Shown: positions 15,539 to 15,844, counted from the first letter of the stretch. The stretch: DNA of 64,000 nucleotides from a virus (IMGVR_UViG_3300023371_000071), one strand, 5' to 3'. The notes: generated by a model not told the origin, from the sequence alone. A program made the numbers and translations.

Positions 15539-15844
15539 GCCCAGGTGGTGGAATTGGCAGACACAGCGGACTTTGACTTAGCGACAACATTTGAGCACTA
15601 TGAAGGAAACTTCATAAGTGAATGCTGGCTAATTCGGCGAATAGCTAAGAGAACGCCGAGCTAAATCGAAAGCCTTTGGCTTTCGTAAATGTGTAGAGAC
15701 TATATACCAGCCTCCTAAGTCGTAAGATATGGAGAAGACATAGTCCGGACTACAACGTAGAAATACGGCCATGGTGACATGGAGTAGTGCGAAAATCCGC
15801 TGGCCTTGAAAGCCGTACGGGTTCGAGTCCCGTCCTGGGCACCA
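15539..15844 (+). tRNA. tRNA-Leu(UAA) containing a ~218-nt group-I-intron-like insertion between U34 and A35
   Basis: exons gcccagg-tg-gtgg..acac-a-gcgga-ctt | aaaa-tccgc-tggccttgaaagcc-gtacggg..cccgt-cctgggc-A-CCA; intron follows a U and ends in G; splice position matches the classical cyanobacterial/plastid tRNA-Leu(UAA) intron. Confidence 0.65.
15574..15791 (+). ncRNA. putative group I intron (self-splicing ribozyme candidate)
   Basis: 218 nt inside the tRNA-Leu(UAA) anticodon; contains aagatatggagaagacatagtcc resembling P7-region sequences; no ORF. Confidence 0.5.

Follow-up and report, generated by a model that had tools for sequence, protein, structure and literature searches.

The tRNA-Leu(UAA) gene considered here is interrupted in its anticodon loop, and the question that it raises is whether the interrupting sequence is a self-splicing group I intron, and of what kind. 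According to a 2014 review, all phage introns known at the time resided in protein-coding genes, despite the many tRNA genes that phages carry (PMC3984707). Our window, i.e. the whole 64,000-nt stretch of DNA that was analysed, looks like part of a large phage; all positions given below are those of this window, on whose plus strand the tRNA-Leu gene and its insert lie, and intron nucleotide n corresponds to window position 15573+n.

ARAGORN with the intron search enabled (-i) calls a class-II tRNA-Leu(taa) with an encoded CCA at 15539–15844, with a 218-nt insert (15574–15791) located between anticodon nucleotides 34 and 35. The 5′ exon (nt 1–34; 15539–15573) ends in C32 U33 U34, while the 3′ exon (15792–15844) runs from A35 through a long variable arm and the T arm to the CCA at 15842–15844. 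The gene is laid out as GCCCAGG-UG-GUGG...CACA-G-GCGGA-CUU / 218 nt / AAAA-UCCGC-(long variable arm)-(T arm)-CCUGGGC-A-CCA, and the junctions read ..GGACUU / UGACUU...GUGCG / AAAAUCCGC... The joined exons yield an 88-nt class-II RNA with a 7-bp acceptor stem, a long variable arm, an encoded CCA and a flawless tRNA fold. The original prediction, made from the sequence alone, had described exactly this—a 218-nt ORF-less insertion between U34 and A35 of a perfect class-II tRNA-Leu(UAA)—and ARAGORN bears it out. The exon-terminal U and intron-terminal G that it had claimed are likewise in place (U15573 and G15791), and U34/A35, as defined in a published survey, is indeed the classical cyanobacterial/plastid tRNA-Leu site. 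Inside the intron there is no plus-strand ORF of 60 aa or longer; the ORFs listed at the insert are short and cross the exon borders, save for one 82-aa ORF on the minus strand, and none is credible.

Standard annotation does not recover this gene. Default ARAGORN reports 33 tRNAs in the window but misses the split tRNA-Leu(UAA), and Rfam run at gathering thresholds reports no intron at the locus, so that the gene is missed there too. In a local scan, the Rfam model that the original prediction had proposed for the search, Intron_gpI (RF00028), matches 15564–15768 over its full length (model positions 1–253) with 47.4 bits and an E-value of 4.4e-11, and in the scan of the whole window this is the sole RF00028 match (E 6.2e-9). 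The score falls 2.6 bits short of the curated gathering score of 50, a cut-off that is operational rather than structural, and it is because of this small shortfall that pipelines overlook the intron. A published survey of tRNA introns used cut-offs of 18–20 bits.

The Rfam alignment pairs the exon CUU with a GAG that places a U·G at the splice site, and also provides P2, P3, P4, P6 and P8 as well as the J6/7–P7 string GUAGAGACUA and the J8/7–P7 string GAAGACAUAGUCC; starting from this alignment we completed a P1–P9 fold by hand. P1 consists of exon CUU (15571–15573) paired with the internal guide GAG (15593–15595, intron nt 20–22), including the U15573·G15593 wobble. P2 (15596–15620, nt 23–47) is a 10-bp helix with one bulged A and a GAAA tetraloop at 15606–15609. 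P3 is formed by GCUGG (15624–15628) and CCAGC (15707–15711), i.e. nt 51–55 and 134–138, and P4 by UCGGCG (15634–15639) and CGCCGA (15654–15659), nt 61–66 and 81–86. P6 (GC/GU) continues into the P6a hairpin CGAAAGCC-UUU-GGCUUUCG flanked by UAAAU on both sides (15660–15692, nt 87–119). P7, the guanosine-binding helix that is pseudoknotted with P3, pairs GACUAU (15698–15703, nt 125–130) with AUAGUC (15740–15745, nt 167–172) and agrees with the Rfam consensus AGACUA...AUAGUC. P8 (15712–15734, nt 139–161) carries the 11-nt tetraloop-receptor motif CCUAAG...UAUGG and a GUAA loop. P9 (15749–15788) is closed by ACUAC/GUAGU (nt 176–180 and 211–215) around two hairpins, CGUA-GAAA-UACG and CCAUG-GUGA-CAUGG, and the terminal ωG (15791, nt 218), which is a G in every homolog that we parsed, immediately precedes the 3′ splice site. 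One detail of the original prediction needs amending: of its two 'P7-like' segments, CATAGTCC (15739–15746) does contain the 3′ strand of P7, whereas AAGATATGGAG (15724–15734) is the 3′ strand of P8 with the tetraloop receptor.

Both core domains, P3–P4–P6 and P7–P3–P8, are thus present together with the P3/P7 pseudoknot. The periphery is of the IC3 type: there is no P2.1 and no P5abc, and the L2 GAAA is positioned such that it would dock into the 11-nt receptor in P8. For the second GAAA loop, L9 (15760–15763), we found no receptor motif in the P5 region, which has no P5 hairpin either. A 3-bp P10 between UUU (15590–15592, nt 17–19) and the AAA of the 3′ exon (15792–15794) can be drawn here and in a few relatives only; across 13 sequences just 17.9% of its cells pair, and we rejected it as a conserved element.

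The fold was scored on an alignment of 13 ORF-less homologous introns. Standard pairs fill 90.7% of the pair cells, as compared with 28–40% when the partners are slid by 1–3 columns; 39 of the 75 pairs show double-sided changes, and on four of five measures none of 500 shuffles reached the observed values. Covariation is seen in P2 (double-sided changes in 9 of its 10 pairs), P3 and P4 (each 100% paired, with two covarying pairs), P6a, P8, P9 with both of its hairpins (97.7–100% paired, with double-sided changes) and the anticodon stem of the tRNA. P1 and P7 are invariant and so contribute no covariation evidence; in P1 the U·G is kept in 12 of the 13 homologs and is a C-G in the version from a tRNA-Leu(CAA) gene. 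Thermodynamic prediction gives a minimum free energy (MFE) z-score of −4.9, and the pseudoknot-free MFE fold, which mispairs the 5′ exon with P8, was discarded. It is the comparative covariation that establishes the group I fold. Along with the Rfam match, the U·G pair and the terminal G, it also supports the original reading of a group I intron at the classical tRNA-Leu(UAA) site, which had not remarked on the feature that we turn to now: the P5 hairpin is missing.

Instead of a P5 stacked on P4, a 14-nt loop, AAUAGCUAAGAGAA (15640–15653), caps P4. At its centre, in the place of P5, lies GCUAAG (15644–15649, nt 71–76), the exact complement of CUUAGC at intron nt 4–9 (15577–15582), which begins 3 nt past the 5′ splice site. 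On either side of this pairing the loop retains adenosines like those of J4/5 and J5/4, which in hairpin-type relatives appear as GAA[A/U]...AAC. The relatives fall into three classes. Class (i) has an ordinary short P5 hairpin and a short L1. Class (ii) has no P5 hairpin, and the centre of its 11–16-nt P4 loop is complementary to intron nt ~2–10. Class (iii) has a P5 hairpin, and its loop, GCCUU or a variant of it, is paired with AAGGU, the last segment of L1 ahead of the guide. Hairpin-type relatives therefore have either a short L1 or an L5 paired with the 3′ part of L1.

In every class (ii) intron the best complement of the P4 loop sits right after GGACUU, at intron nt 2–10, and about 18 different complementary helices of 6–9 bp occupy this same position: CUUAGC/GCUAAG, CUUGGC/GCCAAG, CCUAAC/GUUAGG, CCUUAGU/ACUAAGG, CCCUGAU/AUCAGGG, UCCUAGC/GCUAGGA, UCCUAUC/GAUAGGA, UCUGUC/GGCAGA, UCUUGGU/ACCAAGA, UGUGUUU/AAACACA, UGUAUUC/GAAUACA, UGUUAGC/GCUAACA, UCAACUA/UAGUUGA, UCCAAUA/UAUUGGG, UCCAUUGAG/CUCAAUGGG, UUCAUUGAC/GUCAAUGGA, UUCUAUG/CAUAGAG and UUCUGGU/ACCAGAG. 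In this wider comparison the 5′ splice site was picked by the best pairing among candidates, which somewhat inflates the scores. MAFFT lost the register of the pseudoknot, the linker varying by 1–2 nt, and its columns are likewise scrambled in the full 13-sequence alignment; for this reason we used a custom free-register script that compares cognate with non-cognate strands. For 12 sequences of 7 classes, the cognate L1/P4-loop pairs score 16 on average and never below 14, while 118 non-cognate combinations taken from other classes average 9.1, with 4% reaching 14. Shuffling within single classes gives modest results, with 34 to 1123 of 5000 shuffles attaining the observed score. The recurrence of about 18 different complementary pairs at the same position shows the pseudoknot to be real, and on these comparative data we regard the L1/P4-loop pairing as a conserved pseudoknot.

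Hairpin-type relatives possess an L1 contact of their own. The AAGGU that ends L1, directly ahead of the guide AAAGAGUGC, pairs with the L5 GCCUU, and the variants ACGGU/GCCGU, AAGGC/GCCUU, AAAGGU/GCCUUU and UAUAAGGU/GCCUUAUA occur as well; this loop–loop pairing is found in tRNA-Leu introns of bacterial metagenome-assembled genomes (MAGs) and of viruses (loci L011, L026, L054, L084 and L115–L225). Since relatives that keep the hairpin make an L1–L5 contact of their own, a contact between L1 and the P5 region is a trait of the clade.

How the pseudoknot is accommodated is a matter of geometry that we can address by inference. Most likely, this long-range pairing stacks onto P4 where P5 would otherwise be, and it would also anchor P1, which is very short, and the 5′ splice site at the docking surface of J4/5. 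Should the two helices be coaxial, there may be little room for a return strand of 4 nt that has to span 6 bp, and the arrangement may not be a simple stack. The same potential strain of a coaxial P4/pseudoknot stack with 4-nt connectors, and the fact that the 5′ strand starts merely 3 nt from the splice site, would fit an intron that does splice but in which the L1/P4-loop pairing belongs to an alternative, inactive or regulatory, conformer, or acts as a folding chaperone that opens before catalysis. We consider this unlikely: precisely those introns whose P5 hairpin is lost have the pairing and no others do, its two flanks still carry the J4/5 and J5/4 adenosines that border P5 in hairpin-type relatives, and these relatives make a different L1–L5 contact, a pattern that suits a constitutive tertiary tether better than a switch. 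We cautiously favour the view that a sizeable clade of phage tRNA-Leu introns has exchanged the universal P5 hairpin for a pseudoknot between the P4 loop and the intron 5′ end, with P5 in effect built 'in trans', which would be a new group I architecture.

The intron could instead be a group I remnant that has lost its splicing activity through decay, leaving the tRNA-Leu(UAA) as a pseudogene tolerated by the phage; the lack of both an endonuclease ORF and a P5 hairpin, the very short P1 and the Rfam score under gathering would all be compatible with decay. Yet each element of the catalytic core is intact, being either identical or compensated relative to dozens of relatives, the exons make a flawless tRNA, and the helix that replaces the lost hairpin covaries among about 18 classes of sequence, implying that the RNA structure is under selection. 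Furthermore, none of the 33 tRNAs reported by default ARAGORN is a second tRNA-Leu(UAA), and the 20-kb tRNA array has none; the count is that of the 64-kb window, the genome being at least 170 kb long, and a further copy could sit outside the window. Taken with the state of the core and of the exons, this makes decay decidedly unlikely in our estimation.

It is quite probable, in our view, that a large phage carries in its tRNA-Leu(UAA) gene a self-splicing group I intron of the type known from bacterial tRNAs as Leu.3Ug (IC3), with a pseudoknot replacing P5. The anticodon stem of the pre-tRNA would hold both exon ends together, a dependence that is probable by analogy with published work on Anabaena. 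Exon nucleotides C32-U33-U34 would pair with the guide GAG to give a 3-bp P1 carrying the U·G wobble, an exogenous guanosine bound in P7 would attack after U15573, and the terminal G15791 would then take the place of that guanosine, so that the exons are joined into the 88-nt tRNA. Catalysis is our extrapolation from this fold; the shortness of P1, which is only 3 bp with a poor intron-side extension, counts against it.

By description, the intron shares with the classical tRNA-Leu(UAA) intron of cyanobacteria and plastids the gene, the U34/A35 site, the anticodon-loop context CUU/...g/AAAA, the U-1·G wobble, the ωG, the CUU/GAG P1, the small size and the absence of P2.1 and P5abc. It differs in its host, a phage and not a cyanobacterium or plastid, in the pseudoknot to intron nt 4–9 that takes the place of a P5 hairpin, and in a P9 domain that is a three-way junction with two capped hairpins.

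The tRNA-Ile(CAU) intron of Azoarcus is an IC3 intron and the crystallised minimal group I ribozyme; its P5 hairpin bears the receptor for L9. We take it to be nearly identical to the phage intron in P4 (UUCGGCG/CGCCGAG) and J6/7–P7 (GUGUAGAGACUA), and presumably it also shares the CCUAAG/UAUGG receptor in P8 for the L2 GAAA and the J8/7–P7 segment (GAAG-CAUAGUCC). Unlike the Azoarcus intron, that of the phage has no P5, its GAAA L9 has no canonical receptor, and it occupies another gene and another insertion site.

How widespread such introns are can be gauged from the 16-mer GTAGAGACTATATACC, which spans J6/7–P7–J7/3 and occurs at 109 viral loci of IMG/VR, most of which, by BLAST, share far more of the intron than the 16-mer. 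ARAGORN with re-parsing of the boundaries resolved 78 of the 109 as intron-bearing tRNA-Leu genes, corresponding to 71 unique introns of 196–1087 nt in the exon context GGACUU / ...G / AAAAUCC. A pattern scan of IMG/VR for the short P4 loop returned 62 loci, 47 of them new. In all, at least 150 IMG/VR viral contigs carry related tRNA-Leu introns, many with HNH endonuclease ORFs, and this population is apparently unreported. In the long relatives the HNH ORF lies in L1 or P6, and P6a is a site of large insertions; the 218-nt intron, which has no endonuclease gene, belongs to this same mobile family, in which HNH homing endonucleases are otherwise encoded. A few members of the family lie in phage tRNA-Leu(CAA) genes, where a C precedes the 5′ splice site and P1 contains a C-G pair, and in tRNA-Leu(UAG) genes (loci L002, L035, L056 and L108, and L005, L016, L039, L043, L063, L068 and L082). 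The C-1 intron type had earlier been noted, in a published tRNA-intron survey, in Proteobacteria only.

BLAST searches of 50,697 GenBank phage records with the locus and the intron core found no tRNA-intron homolog, yielding only weak 40-nt matches in the unannotated gap between two DNA primase CDS fragments of two crAss-like genomes, cr116_1 and IAS virus. The introns of phage protein-coding genes (T4 td and nrdB, Twort orf142, crAss-like primase) resemble ours in being phage-borne group I ribozymes, often with homing endonucleases, and those of the crAss-like primases have the 40-nt core stretch in common with it (a weak match); they differ in that all of them interrupt protein-coding genes. 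Megablast with 20 kb of the window matched individual tRNAs and nothing else, and a search of IMG/VR with the neighbouring ORF at 17088–17792 found no relatives.

In bacteria, the same 16-mer is frequent in MAGs. Many of these matches have another exon context, e.g. ..CCUGUC/.., like the tRNA-Asp/Asn introns of Patescibacteria described in PMC13011429, and about 30, among the matches listed, are tRNA-Leu introns in Clostridia or Bacteroidales, all with a P5 hairpin. tRNA-Leu(UAA) introns, some with HNH ORFs, have been described in Bacteroidota (PMC13011429). The gut and rumen MAG introns (Bacteroidales, Paludibacteraceae, Clostridia) have the core 16-mer, the exon context, P4 and the HNH family in common with the phage intron; in contrast to it, those listed keep the P5 hairpin, whose GCCUU loop pairs with the AAGGU at the 3′ end of L1. 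Among the matches listed, none of the roughly 30 tRNA-Leu-type MAG loci has the short-loop pseudoknot form, and a restriction of this form to phages is not proven.

That related introns turn up in MAG contigs labelled Clostridiales, Paludibacteraceae and Bacteroidales, and that no virion genes were identified in the annotated part of the window, raises the prospect that the locus belongs to a bacterial chromosome or some other element and harbours just one more bacterial tRNA-Leu intron. We find this extremely unlikely, given the about 37 tRNA genes in 20 kb with homing endonuclease ORFs interspersed, the PHROG matches to phage topoisomerase II subunits, an RNA ligase and other phage families, the presence of the window's topoisomerase protein on ~168–172-kb contigs from several metagenome assemblies, and the finding of all pseudoknot-type relatives on IMG/VR viral contigs of 80–500 kb.

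Other genes of the window are recorded here as observations in their own right. Three adjacent tRNA-like genes of 115–129 nt (7745–7873, 7877–7995 and 8289–8406) have good acceptor, D and T arms and Rfam tRNA scores of 41–47 bits; their anticodon regions are expanded by 26–44 nt, and the anticodons that ARAGORN -i assigns to them (cta, tac, atc) are implausible. A tRNA with the anticodon CUA and a long variable arm (19471–19561; amber suppressor, 'Pyl' in ARAGORN) suggests TAG readthrough or recoding in the phage. There is a weak Y-RNA-like (YrlA) match of 30.6 bits, far under gathering, at 22865–22983. Cellular-type genes are scattered in the tRNA array (8420–11133 and 21391–27611), comprising an AAA ATPase, a CitMHS-family transporter, a ThiF-family protein, a family 8 glycosyltransferase and a complete S-adenosylmethionine synthetase. 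An RNA-repair-flavoured cluster at 28687–38323 encodes a DUF2828/DUF7788 protein (phrog_850, 'RNA-binding protein'), an 823-aa protein with a major-vault-protein shoulder and repeat domains, an RlaP nucleotidyltransferase, a metallophosphoesterase, an HNH endonuclease and an ATP-dependent RNA ligase.

The original prediction had counted three intron-bearing tRNAs in the phage, the other two being filled by ORFs. Both of the latter are truly split according to ARAGORN -i: a tRNA-Asp(GUC) at 13637–14180 has a 468-nt insert between nt 35 and 36, and a second tRNA at 23714–24264, which ARAGORN calls Tyr and which is probably tRNA-Thr(UGU), has an insert of about 475 nt. Both inserts split the anticodon loop and are nearly all ORF (Pfam PDDEXK_5, PF11645), with ~23 + 13 nt of non-coding sequence. 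The ORF in the tRNA-Asp matches PDB 2OST, labelled 'Putative endonuclease' in the database, with an E-value of 1.7e-7; we take this structure to be I-Ssp6803I. Relatives of the insert ORF are encoded at 34 IMG/VR loci (L282–L315), in 31 of which ARAGORN places them inside a tRNA anticodon loop, mostly that of tRNA-Asp at 35/36.

Sensitive local Rfam scans gave no group I signal in either ORF-filled insert, and on that basis we rejected a hidden group I core in both; a bulge-helix-bulge reading was rejected as well, since the two junctions face a single internal loop. Lacking a group I signal, the two cannot be counted as the same kind of intron as that of tRNA-Leu, and to all appearances they are something other than group I introns. 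The ends of the ORF-filled inserts form a long covarying stem, with compensatory changes such as UUAC/GUAA, UUGC/GCAA and UUCUU/AAGAA, or ACUCUUUA/UAAAGAGU versus AUUCUUUA/UAAAGAAU; its internal loop, CUGAC/CUGAUGU, is conserved and similar to a kink-turn of the box C/D type. The conservation of this RNA stem argues for processing of the inserts. The window also contains two intact tRNA-Asp(GUC) copies (15021–15095 and 16341–16417), and a dead split copy is therefore possible in the case of Asp.

The tRNA group I intron surveys of 2020 and 2026 (one of them PMC13011429) covered bacterial genomes only and assigned the classical type, Leu.3Ug, to IC3. In a literature search whose full-text coverage of subscription journals was thin, neither group I introns of phage tRNA genes nor an L1–P5 pairing turned up as previously described, and we consider the novelty of both aspects—a phage tRNA gene as host, and a P5 replaced by a pseudoknot to the intron 5′ end—provisional.

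Since default tRNA finders and Rfam gathering thresholds miss the gene, published-style inventories of phage tRNA repertoires will lack tRNA-Leu(UAA) wherever such an intron is present, and codon-usage arguments that rest on these repertoires share the gap. For ribozyme biology, a group I intron that has no P5 hairpin is a natural test case for P1 docking and J4/5 recognition, and at ~218 nt the tRNA-Leu intron offers a compact scaffold for ribozyme engineering. If the proposed architecture is correct, docking of the substrate helix would be enforced by base pairing, beyond tertiary contacts alone. The textbook location of phage group I introns is the protein-coding gene, whereas in our data tRNA-Leu genes house them on at least 150 viral contigs. 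The many HNH-bearing viral tRNA-Leu introns suggest that introns have moved between the tRNA genes of phages and those of bacteria, at what is the oldest intron site known, and, should this picture hold, phage tRNA genes would constitute a major and overlooked reservoir of group I introns.
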